Shown: positions 19,518 through 26,589, numbered from the stretch's first letter. The stretch: 30,262 bases of DNA from a virus (IMGVR_UViG_2534681935_000039:1-30262); one strand, 5' to 3'. Numbers and translations: made by a program. Notes: generated by a model from the letters alone, not told the origin.

Positions 19518-20275
19518 TACTCACCTCCTTTGATGCGAATGCCTGCGGCGCGGATTGCATCGATGACTTCAGAAACTTTGTATGCCATTACCGTTTGGTA
19601 ATCATCGTGAAAATCTGTTCGATGAAGCATGCTGCTACGTTCCGGGAGCGATATTTCCCGAGCATCCAGTTCCTTAACGCGTTCCTCCAGTTCGTAGACC
19701 CTGCATTGTTCTCTATCATCAATCAGATATAACCCAAGACATTCGCTTTCTACCCAACCGCCAAAATCATGATCGTAACGCTCACATGAAAACTCACCGT
19801 CACCGTCCTTTGTTGGAATGGTGTAACTATCTAATGGGCCACCATATGTCGGCACATTTCCCAATGTTGGATGCTCAATCCACATGAAAAATGCACGTCC
19901 GGTTATTGGGCAAAGATCTGGCCGCCATTGGTTACGAACAGCCTTGGTTTCGGATAATTCTTCAGCGTGTTGTTTTACTTCCTCAAGCTCAACTCTCAGC
20001 TTCCCTACCGTTAGCGCAATATCCTCGTTCTCCTGGTCGCGGCGTTTTATGTATTGCTGGTTTCTTTCCCGTTCATCCAGTAGTGCCAGCACGGTTTCTG
20101 GTCCGGTCAGAAATTTGAAGGCGTTGAGCGCATCAATATCCACACCGTAATCCTTAAGTTCCTGTTCAGTTAACAAATCATCATCAACTGGCAACATTAA
20201 CAGGCGTTCCATTGCCGGAATTGCACGCTCTGCCGCCTCACGCAGTGCCTGATAGTCAATTGTCATTCTCGCCAT
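19517..20275 (-). CDS. hypothetical protein, possibly ead/Ea22-like (252 aa)
   Basis: Acidic coiled-coil-like N-terminus; vague recollection of ALREAAE / LALLDER motifs in Ea22-like prophage proteins. Confidence 0.4.
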   Translation of the reverse strand: MARMTIDYQALREAAERAIPAMERLLMLPVDDDLLTEQELKDYGVDIDALNAFKFLTGPETVLALLDERERNQQYIKRRDQENEDIALTVGKLRVELEEVKQHAEELSETKAVRNQWRPDLCPITGRAFFMWIEHPTLGNVPTYGGPLDSYTIPTKDGDGEFSCERYDHDFGGWVESECLGLYLIDDREQCRVYELEERVKELDAREISLPERSSMLHRTDFHDDYQTVMAYKVSEVIDAIRAAGIRIKGGE

Positions 20276-21211: not shown

Positions 21212-21708
21212 TTTTGCTCACCTTCCTGTTCTTCCAGAAAAATACGCATAGCCTCAAGCATCTCTTCGGTGCCATACGGTGGCAACTTGTCACGCAGGAT
21301 GTGTTCAATGCTGTTAATGAACTTGCGGATTGCTTTGCGTTCAATTTCAGCCAGGAAAGCGTCGGTGGCTGGGGTTTCCGTGAAGTTGTCCTCCCAACCG
21401 TAGTACTCCTGACGACAGAAGTTATTAAATTCCTTCTCCGACTGTTTAAGCTCCGCATTCTCTGCTGCCAGCACCGAAAACTTCTCGTGTGCCAACTTAA
21501 CAGCCGCATCAGCCTGCTTAATTGACTCAATCGCTTTCTGCTGGTCTTCGGCCAGCTCATTAGCACGCACCAGTTGCACTTCCAGTTGCGTTGCCAAATC
21601 GCTGATCAGCTTTGCCACACTACGCATATCAACGGCACCACATTCTGCTTTCAGTTCCGAAGCCATCTCATACCCGGCGGCAACTAACCCTTTGATATTA
21701 CTTTCCAT
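21208..21708 (-). CDS. coiled-coil hypothetical protein (166 aa)
   Basis: ORF track; helical A/E/K/Q-rich composition. Confidence 0.4.
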   Translation of the reverse strand: MESNIKGLVAAGYEMASELKAECGAVDMRSVAKLISDLATQLEVQLVRANELAEDQQKAIESIKQADAAVKLAHEKFSVLAAENAELKQSEKEFNNFCRQEYYGWEDNFTETPATDAFLAEIERKAIRKFINSIEHILRDKLPPYGTEEMLEAMRIFLEEQEGEQK

Positions 21709-21769
21709 CTTTACCCTCGCTTATCCACATAACTTATTGATTACATTGATAACTAAAAAGATCGTCGAT

Positions 21770-22114
21770 TCAGAACTCTTCGATGTTCCAGCCACCACCT
21801 GCTTTCTTTGGCTTAACCGTTACCCCGATGATTCGGAACGGATACTGATCTGCGGCGACTTTGGTTTTCACCCTGGCGTCGTCGGTCCAGAAACCTTTCA
21901 CTTCGTGCAGTTCCATCTCGCCGGTGGCGAGCATCACAGCGAAATCTGGCGTATAGAACGTGTTATCAGCTAACCGCAGCTTGATACCCTCGAATCGATA
22001 CCAGACGATTTCTCCTGCACGTTTACGCAGCTCAAGGTGCTGGCAATACGCATATTCTGTTTTGTTTATCTGGCCTGTTTTGAGTCGACCAAGAGCCTGT
22101 ATCTGTTTTCTCAT
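21770..22114 (-). CDS. DUF1064-like phage protein (114 aa)
   Basis: N-terminal MRKQIQALGRLKTGQ and YTPDF...HEVKG resemble the recalled DUF1064 family; first gene downstream of an operator-flanked promoter. Confidence 0.45.
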   Translation of the reverse strand: MRKQIQALGRLKTGQINKTEYAYCQHLELRKRAGEIVWYRFEGIKLRLADNTFYTPDFAVMLATGEMELHEVKGFWTDDARVKTKVAADQYPFRIIGVTVKPKKAGGGWNIEEF

Positions 22115-22117
22115 GAT

Positions 22118-22132
22118 TTACCCCTGAGGTAA
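22118..22132. promoter_or_regulatory. operator-like dyad S3: TTACCC-CTG-AGGTAA
   Basis: Abuts the -10 of the minus-strand promoter and overlaps the RBS region of 21770..22114. Confidence 0.5.
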
Positions 22133-22160
22133 TTAAAAACCACATAAGACACGAAATCAA
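22132..22160 (-). promoter_or_regulatory. early promoter (minus strand): -35 TTGATT, 17-bp spacer, -10 TTTAAT
   Basis: Read on the minus strand at 22160-22155 and 22137-22132; flanked by S4 20 bp upstream and S3 overlapping the -10 end. Confidence 0.45.
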
Positions 22161-22179
22161 TAGATTTTAGAATATTTTA

Positions 22180-22194
22180 TTACCTCATAGGTAA
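22180..22194. promoter_or_regulatory. operator-like dyad S4: TTACCT-CAT-AGGTAA
   Basis: Perfect dyad, extended to ATTACC...GGTAAT. Confidence 0.55.
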
Positions 22195-22231
22195 TTATCG
22201 AGACGTAAAAAAATGCGCTATCGCGCTGGTA

Positions 22232-23032
22232 TTACTTGATAAATCCTGACGCCTTTCCCCGCCTGTATTCCTCCATCAGCCACTGCGCCGGTGTTATTCC
22301 CCCCAGGGTGGCGGCGTTAGGCATACACCCGAAACTTCGCCCTGGTGGATGGTAAACGTCTCTCCCTGTGTCCGGAGGCGTACTCATGGGTTCTGGCTTT
22401 GCCTGTATGCTGATCACCGGATCGGGTATCTGCTGTCCGGAAGCCACCTTTTTCGCCCAATCATCGAGCAGCCTGCGCGCGTGTTTCTCAACCTCAATCT
22501 CGCTAAGCTGGCGCTGATACATTGCACGGCGGGTATCACATACGACCCAGTACATAACCGGATGCCGCCACGGGAATCTTTCGGGACCACCAGGATATAA
22601 ACTTTTTTCCTTGCTGTACCGGTGAAACTCCGCCATCACATCGTCAATGGTGACGCCAAGAACCATCTTGCTGTCTTTGCACCACTTGATAAATTGCCCT
22701 GGAGACGGCCAGAACGGAGATTCACTGGCGCGGGCGTGGCGCATACCAGCAGAAACCTGTTCACGGGTTCGGATCCCCCCTTCGGCAAACGCAGCAATCC
22801 ACTGCTGTTTTGCAGCAACTTCCTGCTCTGGCGTCTTCAGGTTGGTTACCACTGCCGCCGGAAACAGTTGTTTCAGCTGTTTAAAAAGGGCATCAACAAG
22901 CCTCTCTGCTGACATGTTCACCACATTGTCATTGTTGACGTACTGATGCTCATAACCTGACATGCGAGAAAGGGCTTCTCCGTCACGGTTTTGTATCGCG
23001 GTAAAAACGTTGTTCACAAGAAATCCTCCCAT
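22232..23032 (-). CDS. replication protein P-like helicase loader (266 aa; start may be GTG 23017 after a GGGAGG RBS)
   Basis: Block SPFWPSPGQFIKWC and surrounding WIAAFAEGGIRTREQVSAGMR closely parallel lambda P as recalled; follows the O-like gene with overlap. Confidence 0.7.
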   Translation of the reverse strand: MGGFLVNNVFTAIQNRDGEALSRMSGYEHQYVNNDNVVNMSAERLVDALFKQLKQLFPAAVVTNLKTPEQEVAAKQQWIAAFAEGGIRTREQVSAGMRHARASESPFWPSPGQFIKWCKDSKMVLGVTIDDVMAEFHRYSKEKSLYPGGPERFPWRHPVMYWVVCDTRRAMYQRQLSEIEVEKHARRLLDDWAKKVASGQQIPDPVISIQAKPEPMSTPPDTGRDVYHPPGRSFGCMPNAATLGGITPAQWLMEEYRRGKASGFIK

Positions 23033-23829
23033 GCTTCAGGGCTGTTCCAGTGCGGAACGTTGTTATCAGGTAATGTTGATTGCTTCTGTCTGCTAATCTG
23101 CAGCCGCCTTGCCAGCTTCTGCTCCCACTGTGCCTGATGGTATGCCTTACCCTCAGCCATCCAGTAAATTCTGAACTCTGCAAGTTCCTGTGCCGTTGGC
23201 AGACTGTCCAGGTATATCCCCTGCAATGAGCTTTTCCGGAGAAAGTCATCTGATGGCTGCCATTGTTCATGCATGACAAATTTGCCTAATTGCCCTGGCC
23301 CACCAGGAGGAACAAAGTTATTCATCACGGCGTTGTTTGCGCCGGGGTCATGAGGCACAGAATCCCCGCTTTTTGTCCTGCTCTCCCTCTCTTGGTTAAA
23401 TGGCTGGTTATATGACTGGTTCTGGATCCCGTTTTTGGGATCATTCAACATCCCGTTTTTGGGATCATTCAACATCCCGTTTTTGGGTATATTCCCGTTT
23501 TCGGTAACATTACCGTTTTCGGGTTCATTACCCCCTTCCCGGTTGCCTTTAATGTTCCCGTTTTTGGTTATATTAAGAGAGAAAACCCGTACTCTTTTCG
23601 TCGCCCCCTTTCTCTCTCCGGTATCTGAAATAAGCCCCATTTTCATGAGCGATATAAGTCCGGCCTGCACGGTTTTTTTATTCAGGCAAGTGTCTTTAAC
23701 GAGGCGTTCTATGCTGGGGTAGCAGAGGTTATATTCATCGGCTCTGTCAGCCATCGAGAGCAGTATGAGCTTTAATGACGAGCTACCTGGATCTGTCTCC
23801 CAGGCCCAATCTGTTGCATGTCTGCTCAT
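23014..23829 (-). CDS. replication initiator, lambda O-like N-terminal DNA-binding domain with DnaT-like C-terminal region (271 aa)
   Basis: N-terminal LKLILLSMADRADEYNLCYPSIERL pattern like lambda O; internal tandem DNA repeats encode the NGN...KNGMLNDP linker; GGAG RBS. Confidence 0.65.
   Translation of the reverse strand: MSRHATDWAWETDPGSSSLKLILLSMADRADEYNLCYPSIERLVKDTCLNKKTVQAGLISLMKMGLISDTGERKGATKRVRVFSLNITKNGNIKGNREGGNEPENGNVTENGNIPKNGMLNDPKNGMLNDPKNGIQNQSYNQPFNQERESRTKSGDSVPHDPGANNAVMNNFVPPGGPGQLGKFVMHEQWQPSDDFLRKSSLQGIYLDSLPTAQELAEFRIYWMAEGKAYHQAQWEQKLARRLQISRQKQSTLPDNNVPHWNSPEAWEDFL
23426..23570. repeat. iteron array (candidate replication origin) inside the O-like gene
   Basis: Six copies of ATCCCGTTTT(T)GGGAT-like units starting near 23426, 23450, 23474, 23492, 23509 and 23555 (periods 24, 24, 18, 18, 45 bp). 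Confidence 0.6.
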
Positions 23830-23844
23830 GATTAATCTCCGCTA

Positions 23845-24045
23845 TCAGCTTGAATGTTGTGGGGAGGAATTAATCATGATCTGCTTAATCTCTGCCCTGA
23901 TGCGACGGTTTGATTCCATGGTGCACTCAACACAGTGTCCGTTGTAAACCCAGCGTTCACTGTCATGTCCGTGCTTACATGGTTTTCCGGTGTAGTAGCG
24001 TTTAAGTCCGCGCTTTGCGGCATCAATACGTGTAATGATTTCCAT
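23845..24045 (-). CDS. small Cys/His-containing hypothetical protein (66 aa from ATG 24045; ORF track extends to TTG 24096)
   Basis: GKPCKHGH...NGHCVEC motif; occupies the cII-like position between cro-like and O-like genes; function not inferred. Confidence 0.35.
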   Translation of the reverse strand: MEIITRIDAAKRGLKRYYTGKPCKHGHDSERWVYNGHCVECTMESNRRIRAEIKQIMINSSPQHSS

Positions 24046-24123
24046 GGTAAGCCCTGTTATTAGTATTGGGATTACGATTATTTTGTGCTGACACAAAAAA
24101 AGATCAACCAGATTTGGTTTTTA

Positions 24124-24138
24124 TTACCTTTGAGGTAC
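24124..24138. promoter_or_regulatory. operator-like dyad S5: TTACCT-TTG-AGGTAC (one mismatch)
   Basis: Located just beyond the cro-like terminator and upstream of the 66-aa gene. Confidence 0.4.
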
Positions 24139-24149
24139 GAATAGATATG

Positions 24150-24171
24150 AAAAGACCGCCGGATGGCGGTC
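24150..24171 (-). terminator. rho-independent terminator after the cro-like gene
   Basis: GACCGCC-AUCC-GGCGGUC 7-bp stem followed by UUUU on the minus transcript, 23 nt after the stop at 24194. Confidence 0.6.
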
Positions 24172-24193
24172 TACAGAGGGTTGTTGCCAGATA

Positions 24194-24424
24194 TCATGAG
24201 TAGAAGAAGTATGCCAGTTCCGCTTTTGAGCGCAGCCATTGTCTTGTTTTACAGGCTTTAAAAAGCCCATTCATCAATACCTTACCTGGCATTTTGCGCT
24301 TACCTGTTAAGTGAGTCTGGATATAGTGACTCGTCGTTCCGGCTTCCTGTGCGAAGGCTTCACGCTCATCCGGAGTAAGTGCAAGCCAGTGCTTTTTGAA
24401 ATCGAAATGTCCGTTATCGCTCAT
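24194..24424 (-). CDS. Cro-like small HTH regulator (76 aa)
   Basis: First gene of the leftward early operon, divergent from the repressor gene across a three-operator region; helix-turn-helix-like stretch EAFAQEAGTTSHYIQTHL. Confidence 0.45.
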   Translation of the reverse strand: MSDNGHFDFKKHWLALTPDEREAFAQEAGTTSHYIQTHLTGKRKMPGKVLMNGLFKACKTRQWLRSKAELAYFFYS

Positions 24425-24449
24425 AGCTATTGCCTGATATTTATTTCAG

Positions 24450-24478
24450 ATAATAAATATTCACCCATAAGGTAACAA
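24450..24478 (-). promoter_or_regulatory. pR-like promoter (minus strand): -35 TTGTTA, 17-bp spacer, -10 TATTAT
   Basis: Read on minus strand at 24478-24473 and 24455-24450; operator S6 occupies the spacer. Confidence 0.45.
24461..24475. promoter_or_regulatory. operator-like dyad S6: TCACCC-ATA-AGGTAA (one mismatch)
   Basis: Within the spacer of the pR-like promoter. Confidence 0.45.
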
Positions 24479-24491
24479 AAATCAAGGATAG

Positions 24492-24506
24492 TTACCTATG
24501 AGGTGC
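24492..24506. promoter_or_regulatory. operator-like dyad S7: TTACCT-ATG-AGGTGC (two mismatches in right half)
   Basis: Centre 31 bp from S6 and 17 bp from S8. Confidence 0.4.
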
Positions 24507-24508
24507 AT

Positions 24509-24523
24509 TTACCTGTTGGGTAA
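24509..24523. promoter_or_regulatory. operator-like dyad S8: TTACCT-GTT-GGGTAA
   Basis: Third site of the divergent immunity region, nearest the repressor gene. Confidence 0.5.
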
Positions 24524-24578
24524 TATTGCTTTAAATTGAATCATCTACTGATTCATATATGAGGCGATTTTCCAGAAA

Positions 24579-25163
24579 ATGAAAAGTATCCAGGACGTCC
24601 GCAGGCAAAATCTCAACGACTTGATCGACCGTGAATTCAATGGTGTTCAGACGCGGATGGCTGAAAAACTTGGAACTCAGGCAAATCTGGTAAACCGCTG
24701 GGCTCTTGGCAAGAAGGTTATCGGCGACCAGGTTGCGCGAAAAATTGAAGCTGCCGCCAATAAACCCCGTAACTGGCTTGATATCGATCGCTCGCTTTCT
24801 CAGGAAGGTTTTCAGCCTGTCGGACCAAGCGACATTGGTCAGCTGGCGGCTCACAACCTGGAACGCTGGATGAGCGAAAGCCGCGACCTTTCAACACAGG
24901 GAAAACTTCACCGCGCATCCGGCGTAGCCCAGGTGACAATCAGCCGCCTGTTAAACAATGAGGTCAGCGTTTCCATTTCCACCCTGGAGAATGTTGCATC
25001 CGCATTCGGGCGTCACGGCTATGAATTACTGATTCACCCGCACGACCCTGCGACCATCAACTATGATCGCTCGCGCTACGCATTGTTACCCGAAACCGAG
25101 AAAGCAAAGATCGAAAGTTACATTGAATTTGTCATCAACCAGAACGAAAAAAACAAACAATAA
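24579..25163 (+). CDS. prophage repressor candidate with two tandem HTH (XRE-like) domains and no recognisable LexA/S24 peptidase domain (194 aa)
   Basis: N-terminal QTRMAEKLGTQANLVNRWALGKK and second LSTQGKLHRASGVAQVTISRLLN HTH-like segments; divergent from the cro-like gene; own terminator downstream. Confidence 0.55.
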   Translation: MKSIQDVRRQNLNDLIDREFNGVQTRMAEKLGTQANLVNRWALGKKVIGDQVARKIEAAANKPRNWLDIDRSLSQEGFQPVGPSDIGQLAAHNLERWMSESRDLSTQGKLHRASGVAQVTISRLLNNEVSVSISTLENVASAFGRHGYELLIHPHDPATINYDRSRYALLPETEKAKIESYIEFVINQNEKNKQ

Positions 25164-25183
25164 AATCATATTTTTCAGTAAGT

Positions 25184-25207
25184 AAGCCGCCTTCTGGCGG
25201 CTTTTTT
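25184..25207 (+). terminator. rho-independent terminator after the repressor gene
   Basis: AAGCCGCC-TTCT-GGCGGCTT stem-loop followed by a T-run. Confidence 0.65.
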
Positions 25208-25220
25208 ATTGCCTATTTGA

Positions 25221-25235
25221 TTACCTAATGGGTAA
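25221..25235. promoter_or_regulatory. operator-like dyad S9: TTACCT-AAT-GGGTAA
   Basis: 20 bp upstream of the TTGACA -35 of the pL-like promoter. Confidence 0.5.
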
Positions 25236-25254
25236 TTTTTTTAACTCATATCTA

Positions 25255-25283
25255 TTGACATCAAACCAGATACGCATAATTAT
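25255..25283 (+). promoter_or_regulatory. pL-like promoter: -35 TTGACA (25255-25260), 17-bp spacer, -10 AATTAT (25278-25283)
   Basis: Consensus -35; -10 only moderate; flanked by S9 and S10 with the same spacing as the promoter at 22132-22160. Confidence 0.5.
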
Positions 25284-25297
25284 TACCTCAACGGTAA
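25283..25297. promoter_or_regulatory. operator-like dyad S10: TTACCT-CAA-CGGTAA
   Basis: Overlaps the last base of the -10 and the predicted transcription start. Confidence 0.5.
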
Positions 25298-25316
25298 CAG
25301 ACCGAGGTAACAAGTT

Positions 25317-25469
25317 ATGCAGTGGAAAATCATCAACGGTTGGTACTGCGTTACTGCATGCGGATTCATGAGCTGGAAGTTCCGCACCTTACAGGAAGGC
25401 ATCAAGTGGGCTTTCGTCAGCAAAGAAGCTCGCGATGTGGCCAACGATAACGAGATATGGGAGGGCTGA
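25317..25469 (+). CDS. small hypothetical protein (50 aa), first ORF of the rightward operon
   Basis: Hand-translated; GAGG 8 nt before ATG 25317; its last codons carry the GGGAGGG RBS of the next gene. Confidence 0.25.
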   Translation: MQWKIINGWYCVTACGFMSWKFRTLQEGIKWAFVSKEARDVANDNEIWEG

Positions 25470-25471
25470 TA

Positions 25472-25771
25472 ATGAACGTTAATCAGCAGAAAAATCTTCA
25501 AAAAATCATGCTGGCATTCGACAAGGACTACCGCCTATCAGAACAGCTATATGACCGACAAGTTGAACTGATTGAGAGCATCCGACTTCATCAACTGTCC
25601 TCAACTTTCGACGTTGTAACAGGCAAAGGCGTTCGTCAGGAAGTACTGGAGGCTGCTAAAGACAGCCCTGAGTTCGAAGAACTGATGGATGCCTATCGGC
25701 GAGAGGCAATGGCAATTATCGCCCGCTGGGATCTGGCGGATCAGCTTGATGGACAGAGGGACGCGGCATGA
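25472..25771 (+). CDS. hypothetical protein (99 aa from ATG 25472; ORF track starts at 25457)
   Basis: GGGAGGG 6 nt upstream of ATG 25472; ATGA overlap with the next gene. Confidence 0.45.
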   Translation: MNVNQQKNLQKIMLAFDKDYRLSEQLYDRQVELIESIRLHQLSSTFDVVTGKGVRQEVLEAAKDSPEFEELMDAYRREAMAIIARWDLADQLDGQRDAA

Positions 25772-26589
25772 AACCGGGAATTTATTTCGACATCAGCAAC
25801 GAAGACTACCACGCCGGTGACGGCGTGAGTAAGTCGCAACTGGACATGGTTGCCAAGAATCCGGCGCTTCTTAAATGGGTTCAGGCAGCACCAGAAGACG
25901 AAGAGAAAAAGTCTGCACTGGATATGGGAACCGCATTGCACTGTCTGCTTCTGGAGCCTGGAGAGTTCGACAAACGCTTCATTGTTTCACCGAAATTCGA
26001 ACGTCGGACAAAACAAGGTAAAGCTGACGAAGAAGCATTTCTTCGTGATGTGGCGGATATGGGTATTACGGTACTTGATGTCGAGCAGTGGCGAAAACTG
26101 GAGCTGATGCGTGATAGCGCAATGGCTCACCCGGCTGCACGCTGGATGCTGGAAGCACCTGGTTACTGCGAAGCATCAATGTACTGGAACGATGAAGAGA
26201 CTGGTGAGTTGTGCCGCATTCGTCCAGACAAATGGCTGAACGAGCACAACGTGATCGTCGACGTGAAAAAGGTTGCAGATATGGACCGTTTTGCACGCCA
26301 CATCGAGGAATTCCGCTACCACGTGCAGGACGCAATGTACCGCGAAGGAGCAATGAGGGTTACTGGTCAGTCGCATGGTTTTTTCTTTCTTGCCGTGAGC
26401 GAAAGCATTGATTGTGGTCGGTATCCGGTACGCGTGTTCGAGCTGGATGCACCGGATGTCGATGCCGGGCACGCTCTGTTCCGCCGGGATCTGAATACCT
26501 ATCACGAATGCCGCATCAATGATGAATGGGGCGGTGTGGAAATTATTAAACGCCCTGACTGGGCACGTAAACAGGATATGTACGTATGA
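25768..26589 (+). CDS. putative PD-(D/E)XK-type exonuclease, RecE C-terminal-domain-like (273 aa)
   Basis: N-terminal GIYFDISNEDYHAGDGVSKSQLD and IVDVKK D-x-K motif recalled from short exonuclease VIII-like prophage proteins; ATGA-coupled to the annealing protein gene. Confidence 0.5.
   Translation: MKPGIYFDISNEDYHAGDGVSKSQLDMVAKNPALLKWVQAAPEDEEKKSALDMGTALHCLLLEPGEFDKRFIVSPKFERRTKQGKADEEAFLRDVADMGITVLDVEQWRKLELMRDSAMAHPAARWMLEAPGYCEASMYWNDEETGELCRIRPDKWLNEHNVIVDVKKVADMDRFARHIEEFRYHVQDAMYREGAMRVTGQSHGFFFLAVSESIDCGRYPVRVFELDAPDVDAGHALFRRDLNTYHECRINDEWGGVEIIKRPDWARKQDMYV

Follow-up and report, generated by a model that had tools for sequence, protein, structure and literature searches.

The closest described system is the Rep/Ant lysis-lysogeny switch of phage SPC32H, reportedly the work of Kim & Ryu (2013) and Kim et al. 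(2016) and represented by PDB entries 5D50 and 5D4Z. In this type of system a LexA-controlled small protein, Ant, disassembles the repressor Rep. Loop-forming repressors provide a second point of reference: lac O1 and O3 lie 92 bp apart, the gal operators OE and OI are centred at -60.5 and +53.5, and the operators joined by lambda CI are separated by 5-6 helical turns. GalR bound at the -60.5 operator hinders the alpha subunit of RNA polymerase. Phage P1 C1 is a third: it controls several distinct operons through many operators dispersed over the genome, and an antirepressor brings about induction. The operator recognised by P1 C1 lacks symmetry, and the sites in P1 occur for the most part singly or as overlapping pairs. 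At the protein level, the DNA-binding form of SPC32H Rep is a tetramer, with each pair of DNA-binding domains drawn from different dimers, and the antirepressor Ant breaks this tetramer (PMC9638917). The Rep tetramerisation domain has the 'TetDloop' fold of Rco/p53 and has been proposed as a DNA-looping domain; Rco of plasmid pLS20 loops about 75 bp (PMC9986798).

We compared these systems with a window of 30,262 nt of viral DNA (the whole stretch analysed; positions count from its first base). Its region 21700-25800 was 97-99.8% identical to the Escherichia phages phiV10, PAS61, phiv142-3 and PH444, and about 78% identical to the Enterobacter phages Tyrion and BUCT554; judged by sequence, the window is a Uetakevirus genome (an epsilon15/phiV10-like podophage). 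SPC32H Rep is a full-length homologue of the window Rep with an identical NLVNRW segment, neither protein has a self-cleavage domain, and in SPC32H, too, both promoters carry TTACC-N5-GGTAA dyads spaced by 62 bp. In SPC32H and epsilon15 the motif occurs at OR, OL, O3 and terS and before gp3, as in the window. By repressor homology and operator identity, the system is thus a member of the SPC32H/epsilon15 Rep family. There are differences: the window Rep is a phiV10-type allele whose C-terminal half diverges from that of SPC32H, the pL region of SPC32H has a third operator 76 bp further downstream that is absent from the window, and ant of SPC32H is flanked by the structural genes and the tailspike gene, in a region outside the window. 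A perfect Rep operator stands between ant and the tailspike gene of SPC32H (20013-20027 of that locus, L021), also outside the window, and Rep may act at the SPC32H ant promoter region too.

Like lac, gal, lambda CI and Rco, the locus combines a multivalent repressor with two operators per promoter, one near the start and the second tens of bp off at a roughly integral number of turns, and Rep shares the fold of its tetramerisation domain with Rco/p53. It differs from these systems in an unusually short separation (62 bp centre to centre, with 47 bp between) and in operators of equal strength, and its loop is a predicted one. The likeness to the P1 C1 regulon lies in one repressor serving many operators, which in the window number 11 at six places including the front of a terminase gene; the sequences of P1 C1 and Rep are however unrelated, and the P1 operators do not form 62-bp brackets.

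The gene map was taken from the phiV10 annotation. Along the minus strand, a cro-like gene (24424-24194; 76 aa) is followed by a terminator and a small gene, and then by the DnaT-like initiator gene (23829-23014) and the lambda-P-like protein gene (23032-22232), both as annotated in phiV10, the latter followed by a short terminator. The DUF1064 gene (21770-22114, -; Pfam PF06356, E=9e-7; phiV10 p45) is the first of the O3 operon, and beyond it a series of small early genes extends to a regulator that directly precedes the terminase genes. Along the plus strand, the repressor gene rep (24579-25163; 194 aa) is followed by a terminator, two small genes and then RecE/RecT, an AlpA-family regulatory gene (the excisionase of the epsilon15 annotation), a PerC-like regulator and a methylase. 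Inside the DnaT-like gene, positions 23393-23532 hold tandem repeats, 24 bp x 2.6 (100% identity) and then 18 bp x 3.1, with a small hairpin in each unit; these repeats are probably replication-origin iterons, as in lambda O.

Two promoters of this region, O3 and OL, are each bracketed by a pair of operators. At O3, the distal operator TTACCTATGAGGTAA (22194-22180, -), an exact motif match found in the same place in 13 genomes, is separated by a 19-nt gap from the -35 hexamer TTGATT (22160-22155, -), which lies within (C)TATTGA. A 17-nt spacer leads to the putative -10 hexamer TTTAAT (22137-22132, -), whose last base is the first of the proximal operator TTACCTCAGGGGTAA (22132-22118, -). The proximal operator would span about -7 to +8 and the distal operator would be centred at about -62 relative to the predicted start; the ATG of the DUF1064 gene (22114, -) lies downstream of the proximal operator. 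The distal operator is itself 12 nt downstream of the T-run of the P-gene intrinsic terminator (GCGC-GATA-GCGC followed by T7; 22207-22226, -), which is annotated in phiV10 and closes the replication-gene operon. The 4-bp stem of this terminator is below the size for the terminator scan; stem and T-run are kept in relatives, with variable loops.

At OL, the rep intrinsic terminator (25184-25209, +) ends about 12 nt before the distal operator TTACCTAATGGGTAA (25221-25235, +; a motif match), and the same 19-nt gap leads to the -35 hexamer TTGACA (25255-25260, +). After a 17-nt spacer, the -10 hexamer AATTAT (25278-25283, +) shares its last base with the first of the proximal operator TTACCTCAACGGTAA (25283-25297, +), and an ATG follows at 25317 (+). 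The epsilon15 homologues of both OL operators are annotated as repressor-binding. At O3 and OL alike the dyads start 62 bp apart, both operators of each pair are perfect consensus, and the 47 bp between them are 66-79% A+T and carry the -35; the distal operator is followed by a T- or A-tract similar to an UP element. A sequence-only reading of the window had reported the same dyad and promoter layout at both promoters, and we recovered it in gap, spacer, 62-bp distance and one-base -10 overlap, with all of its coordinates and sequences for the two promoters present in the window. Two other candidate promoters at the O3 site were dropped: a minus-strand TCGATA-16-TAAAAT, with the distal operator in its spacer, had a -35 that is not kept in relatives, and a plus-strand AAGACA-16-TAGAAT (22146-22173) was not conserved. 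Within one genome the inter-operator DNA of O3 and OL was identical at 22-29 of 47 positions, counting the fixed TATTGA. On this figure we reject a recent duplication; the resemblance would reflect either an old duplication or convergence.

The motif TTACC-N5-GGTAA, with at most one mismatch, was present at 10 sites in the 30 kb, where 0.38 would be expected by chance; no shuffle out of 100 had as many. A further site with two mismatches, between rep and cro, brings the total to 11: one ahead of gp3 (13818), two ahead of the small terminase gene (16969 and 16987), and the others at O3 (22118 and 22180), after the cro terminator (24124-24138), at OR (24461, 24492 and 24509) and at OL (25221 and 25283). 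OR (24461-24523), between the divergent cro-like and rep genes, comprises two imperfect operators, 24461-24475 with a TCACC half and 24492-24506 with a GGTGC half, and a perfect one at 24509-24523, at spacings of 31 and 17 bp; the imperfect half-sites stay imperfect in relatives. The stretch 24450-24543 holds a likely PR on the minus strand (TTGTTA-17-TATTAT) with OR operator 1 in its spacer, and a possible rep promoter (TTTACC-17-TTAAAT) that overlaps OR operator 3.

Each of four intrinsic terminators in the window, those of rep, the P gene, cro and p55, is followed within 10-17 bp by an operator (25221-25235, 22180-22194, 24124-24138 and 16987-17001, respectively). Operators so close behind terminators suggest that bound Rep probably also blocks read-through in the lysogen. 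From the distribution of sites, Rep would directly control at least three transcription units, not one. The tandem operators 17001-16987 and 16983-16969 (-), 18 bp apart, stand between the p55 terminator and the small terminase gene terS; the second holds the terS ribosome-binding site, and an ATG at 16966 lies 2 nt further on. In the phiV10 record terS begins further upstream, at a TTG (17047), a start that would carry the gene across the terminator; the epsilon15 start agrees with 16966. We found no good -35 upstream of these tandem operators, which could be either a roadblock or part of an activator-dependent late promoter.

The protein that recognises the dyads is almost certainly the adjacent 194-aa Rep, as judged from homology and from the company that the motif keeps. 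A phmmer search of the PDB matched Rep to 5D50 over residues 1-190 (E=4e-42, about 42% identity) and its C-terminal half to 5D4Z (E=4e-20). Pfam and PDB homology place a Cro/YdaS-type HTH at the N terminus and an HTH_3-like plus tetramerisation region at the C terminus, and Pfam gave no S24 peptidase domain. The segment NLVNRW in the N-terminal HTH was invariant in an alignment of six Reps of 42-78% identity and is taken here to be the recognition helix; its invariance fits that of the half-site across the genus. Among loci with only distant N-terminal relatives of Rep, the motif was nearly absent, with one single-mismatch hit. By homology of its C-terminal domain to that of SPC32H Rep, the window Rep would be tetrameric and bind DNA through trans-paired N-terminal domains. 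The PDB search returned only 5D50 and 5D4Z, neither of them a repressor-DNA complex. The window Rep is identical to the ORF21 repressor of ZX5, overexpression of which blocked free-phage production and lowered endolysin and holin transcripts by >99.9% (PMC9782041). The cro-like regulator (24194-24424, -) matched phrog_35 'transcriptional repressor' (E=6e-13) and showed weak HTH similarity to the N-terminal domain of Rep; it may use the same operators.

The sequence-only reading had made its case depend on the spacing being conserved in related prophages. We compared 13 genomes with repressors 42-100% identical to the window Rep: the window and the phages phiV10, BUCT554, Tyrion, SPC32H, epsilon15 and BUCT711, and prophages of Superficieibacter, Erwinia dacicola, Klebsiella, Citrobacter werkmanii, C. 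braakii and Scandinavium. The set spans the genera Escherichia, Salmonella, Enterobacter, Klebsiella, Citrobacter, Erwinia, Superficieibacter and Scandinavium. The bracket was present at both promoters in 13/13 genomes, and its spacing held at 61-63 bp (62 bp in 22 of the 26 promoter copies, with two copies each at 63 and 61 bp). TATTGA stood 19 nt after the distal operator in every one of the 26 copies, and the overlap of -10 and operator was kept throughout. The 47 nt between the operators were about 57-77% identical (median pairwise 77% at O3 and 62% at OL) and free of indels, which were present in the DNA just outside the brackets. Half-sites were invariant and the central 5 bp variable, the pattern that a palindrome bound by a protein should show.

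We also scanned IMG/VR with an exact pattern of two dyads separated by 45-75 bp. Of the 125 unique sequences obtained, 93 had a spacing of 62 bp, 11 of 63, one of 61 and one of 64; at loci with a Rep homologue, 92/101 unique dyad pairs lay 61-64 bp apart. Divergence was followed with this DNA-pattern scan, a protein-based scan of IMG/VR having returned only Reps identical to the query. Judged by these comparisons, the shared geometry is real and under selection. The Scandinavium prophage (L011; 1061-1136 and 5140-5215) was the only genome with both brackets at 61 bp, a consequence of 16-nt spacers in both of its promoters, and offers one isolated example of the two promoters changing in parallel.

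A divergent clade with Reps 46-52% identical (L109, L111, L126, L174 and L203) departs from this geometry. Its OL operators are 74-75 bp apart: the proximal operator lies 12-13 bp further downstream, a decayed half-site is left at 62, and the distal operator is still 19 nt from TTGACA. At O3 the clade has TTGCAA-17-AATGAT with one operator in the spacer and, at a distance of 18 bp, another that begins on the final -10 base (L174 3331-3363; L203 6758-6790; L111 938-970). O3-type pairs at 52-53 bp were found in two other loci. The spacings of the divergent clade show that 62 bp is not obligatory and that the interval from distal operator to -35 is the most invariant distance, which also fits a polymerase-directed role of the distal site. 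The 62-bp design is a trait of the core genus and not of the whole Rep family. The rare spacings of 52-53 and 74-75 bp are near 5 and 7 turns at 10.5 bp/turn, and 62 bp is near 6, from few independent events; 62 bp approaches an integral number of turns only at about 10.4-10.5 bp/turn (5.9 turns at 10.5). A histogram of all pairs, non-adjacent sites included, was dominated by 62, 48 and 17-18 bp, with 47-48 and 76 bp also represented. Since this histogram is lineage-redundant and the variants are few, phasing is suggestive only.

A third module, at about 13753-13832 (+), has TTGACA at 13796-13801 and a full operator at 13818-13832 over the -10 position; its TTGACA points at a putative RNA element, tRNA-Arg and p03. 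A conserved half-site, TTATTACC, stands exactly 62 bp upstream of the full operator, and this distance is kept although TTGACA is 6 bp nearer the operator. The module is shared, with an unchanged layout, by epsilon15, SPC32H, Tyrion and a Klebsiella phage. Retention of 62 bp despite the displaced -35 points to an operator-to-operator, not an operator-to-polymerase, constraint; the half-site lies within a 45-nt invariant block, and other constraints could account for its conservation.

The two bracketed promoters are of unequal quality. In a sigma-70 consensus scan the OL promoter TTGACA-17-AATTAT had 10 of 12 consensus matches, in keeping with the sigma-70 criteria of 16-18 bp spacing and a -10 with A at position 2 and T at position 6, and TTGAC(A/T) and nATnAT are kept in the 13 genomes. 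O3, TTGATT-17-TTTAAT, scored 9/12 with T instead of A at position 2 of the -10, and was absent from the consensus-scan output for the window because of that missing A. The sigma-70 status of O3 is therefore weaker than the sequence-only reading implied: its -35 is invariant in 13 genomes, but its -10 is weak and unlisted by the scan. Relatives have TTAAAT (most) or ATAAAT in the O3 -10 register. If transcription starts as predicted, the O3 leader would be about 11-14 nt. The right half of the proximal O3 operator is the Shine-Dalgarno sequence of the DUF1064 gene, and the start codon comes 2-5 nt after this operator in 13/13 genomes irrespective of the downstream gene. Judged by gene content, calling both promoters early is reasonable, and the label 'pL-like' fits the plus-strand one, which lies past rep and its terminator and ahead of RecE/RecT and the AlpA-family excisionase-like gene.

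The account that we favour, and consider rather probable, is that these are Rep-operator brackets in which the proximal site blocks the -10 and start while the distal site cooperates through a tetramer loop and perhaps blocks read-through. Rep at the proximal operator (about -7 to +8) would prevent open-complex formation. One Rep tetramer, or two interacting Rep units, would bridge the proximal operator and the distal one near -62, bending the AT-rich 47 bp with the -35 into a small loop of about six helical turns, and the loop would give tight cooperative repression in the lysogen. Rep on the distal operator, 10-17 bp past the terminator of the preceding operon, would also stop read-through. 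By these means Rep would control both the pL-like promoter of the recombination and excision genes and O3, the promoter of the operon that runs from DUF1064 to the regulator, past the replication genes. Inactivated, on this account, by an antirepressor and not by self-cleavage, Rep would release both promoters together when the antirepressor splits the tetramer. The earlier suggestion of a repressor at paired sites, possibly cooperative or looping, thus gains support from the conserved spacing and from homology to SPC32H Rep, in so far as sequence can give it. Rep binding at the exact sites, co-occupancy, looping and start points are what we infer here. In a more specific form, which we advance tentatively and hold to be clearly less certain than the general account, one trans-paired Rep tetramer closes a 62-bp micro-loop round the -35 at two, perhaps three, promoters. 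If true, few natural repression loops would be as tight, the odd trans-paired arrangement of the crystal structures would acquire a functional rationale, and the antirepressor would open all loops at once by splitting the tetramer.

The strongest competitor, which we think unlikely but place not far behind the micro-loop, does without a loop: the operators of a pair would act independently, the proximal one repressing and the distal one blocking read-through and/or hindering the RNA polymerase alpha subunit. The operators behind these four terminators would suit such a distal role, as would the UP-element-like T- or A-tract after the distal site. The 19 nt from distal operator to -35, the most invariant distance even where the proximal site has moved by 12-13 bp, agrees with it as well, and since both operators are full, perfect consensus, neither obviously needs help from its partner, which counts against cooperativity. 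A roadblock, however, needs no fixed distance to a promoter, and 47 bp kept without indels at two separately evolving promoters exceeds what it needs. The third module moreover holds 62 bp with its -35 shifted by 6 bp, and for a multivalent tetramer such as Rep bridging would be natural.

Bracketing by Rep would take a different meaning at O3 if the minus-strand element were no promoter at all and its dyads stopped or modulated transcription arriving from the upstream cro/replication operon, with TATTGA serving otherwise. The -10 without its key A, uncalled by the scan, a leader of so few nt with its Shine-Dalgarno sequence at the very 5' end, and an upstream terminator whose 4-bp stem makes read-through plausible all lean this way. 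We nevertheless regard it as improbable, given that TATTGA in 13/13 genomes occupies the same operator offsets as the perfect TTGACA of OL, and that the divergent clade has a clearer promoter at this place (TTGCAA-17-AATGAT, with an operator on the last -10 base). It is barely credible that the dyads instead work as RNA hairpins, in the control of translation or as terminators, or bind a host factor. Two of them, 22118 and 16969, do overlap ribosome-binding sites, but as hairpins the dyads would be worth only -1 to -5 kcal/mol and have no U-tract, their stems never covary (invariant stems being joined to variable loops), and the distal sites, being upstream of the -35, would not be part of the transcript as predicted; on energy and absent covariation we rejected the hairpin or terminator reading. 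The co-occurrence of the motif with Rep homologues, and its near absence (one single-mismatch hit) from loci with only distant N-terminal relatives, also speak against hairpins or a host factor.

Some of these sites had been annotated before. The epsilon15 RefSeq record NC_004775.2 has features entered as 'protein_bind: repressor, lysogeny'. At OL they cover the homologues of both operators and a third site, at O3 that of the distal operator, at terS one site of two, and there is one before gp3; these are predictions and not experiments, and the record is without the proximal O3 operator, the three OR sites, the promoters and any remark on spacing. In the open literature (beyond whose scope lie Kropinski 2007, Kim & Ryu 2013 and Kim 2016) we found no mapping of the operators, no remark on a common 62-bp geometry and no report of binding, footprinting or transcription starts for these sites, and text searches of the literature for the operator motif returned nothing. 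Given this earlier prediction of the sites in a sister genome and the familiar type of mechanism, the novelty is modest, and the finding is an incremental addition to known regulation, with no new principle. The 62-bp bracket does offer a concrete DNA substrate for the Rep tetramer, with two perfect operators at a fixed distance and an AT-rich insert. Direct control of several units would bear on how immunity and induction work in these prophages, a group often met in E. coli O157 and Salmonella.

Several observations were made in the neighbourhood of the third module. A non-coding stretch at 13914-14158 (+), with a core at about 13972-14110, lies upstream of the phage tRNA-Arg and shares 77-83% identity with DNA that carries no annotation in many unrelated phages, among them P1/P7/D6 (between trnI and ban), Stx2c phages, Klebsiella SopranoGao, and cdtI and 1720a-02 (just downstream of cI). 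Its 18-nt invariant core, GTAGCCGGAATGTGCAAG, occurred at at least 120 IMG/VR loci. In 38 non-redundant copies of the element, two hairpins showed compensatory changes at 8/14 predicted pairs, and a third hairpin was of variable length. The element had no Rfam match at E<=1, and its core sequence gave no literature hit; it looks like an undescribed structured RNA.

The tRNA-Arg itself (anticodon TCT; 14155-14231, +) is on the strand opposite the late genes, and SPC32H has one likewise placed. It overlaps the 3' end of an 83-aa ORF (14412-14161, -), p04 in phiV10, which may be spurious because of this overlap. We considered this ORF as an antirepressor and rejected it: it had no PDB match, it overlaps the opposite-strand tRNA, and ant of SPC32H lies elsewhere. 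Downstream of the predicted Rep-controlled promoter and the tRNA, p03 (14430-14810, +; 126 aa) is Sf6 gene 66-like (phrog_322), and its residues 69-111 weakly matched the anti-CBASS protein Acb4 (PDB 9e4w; E=0.007).
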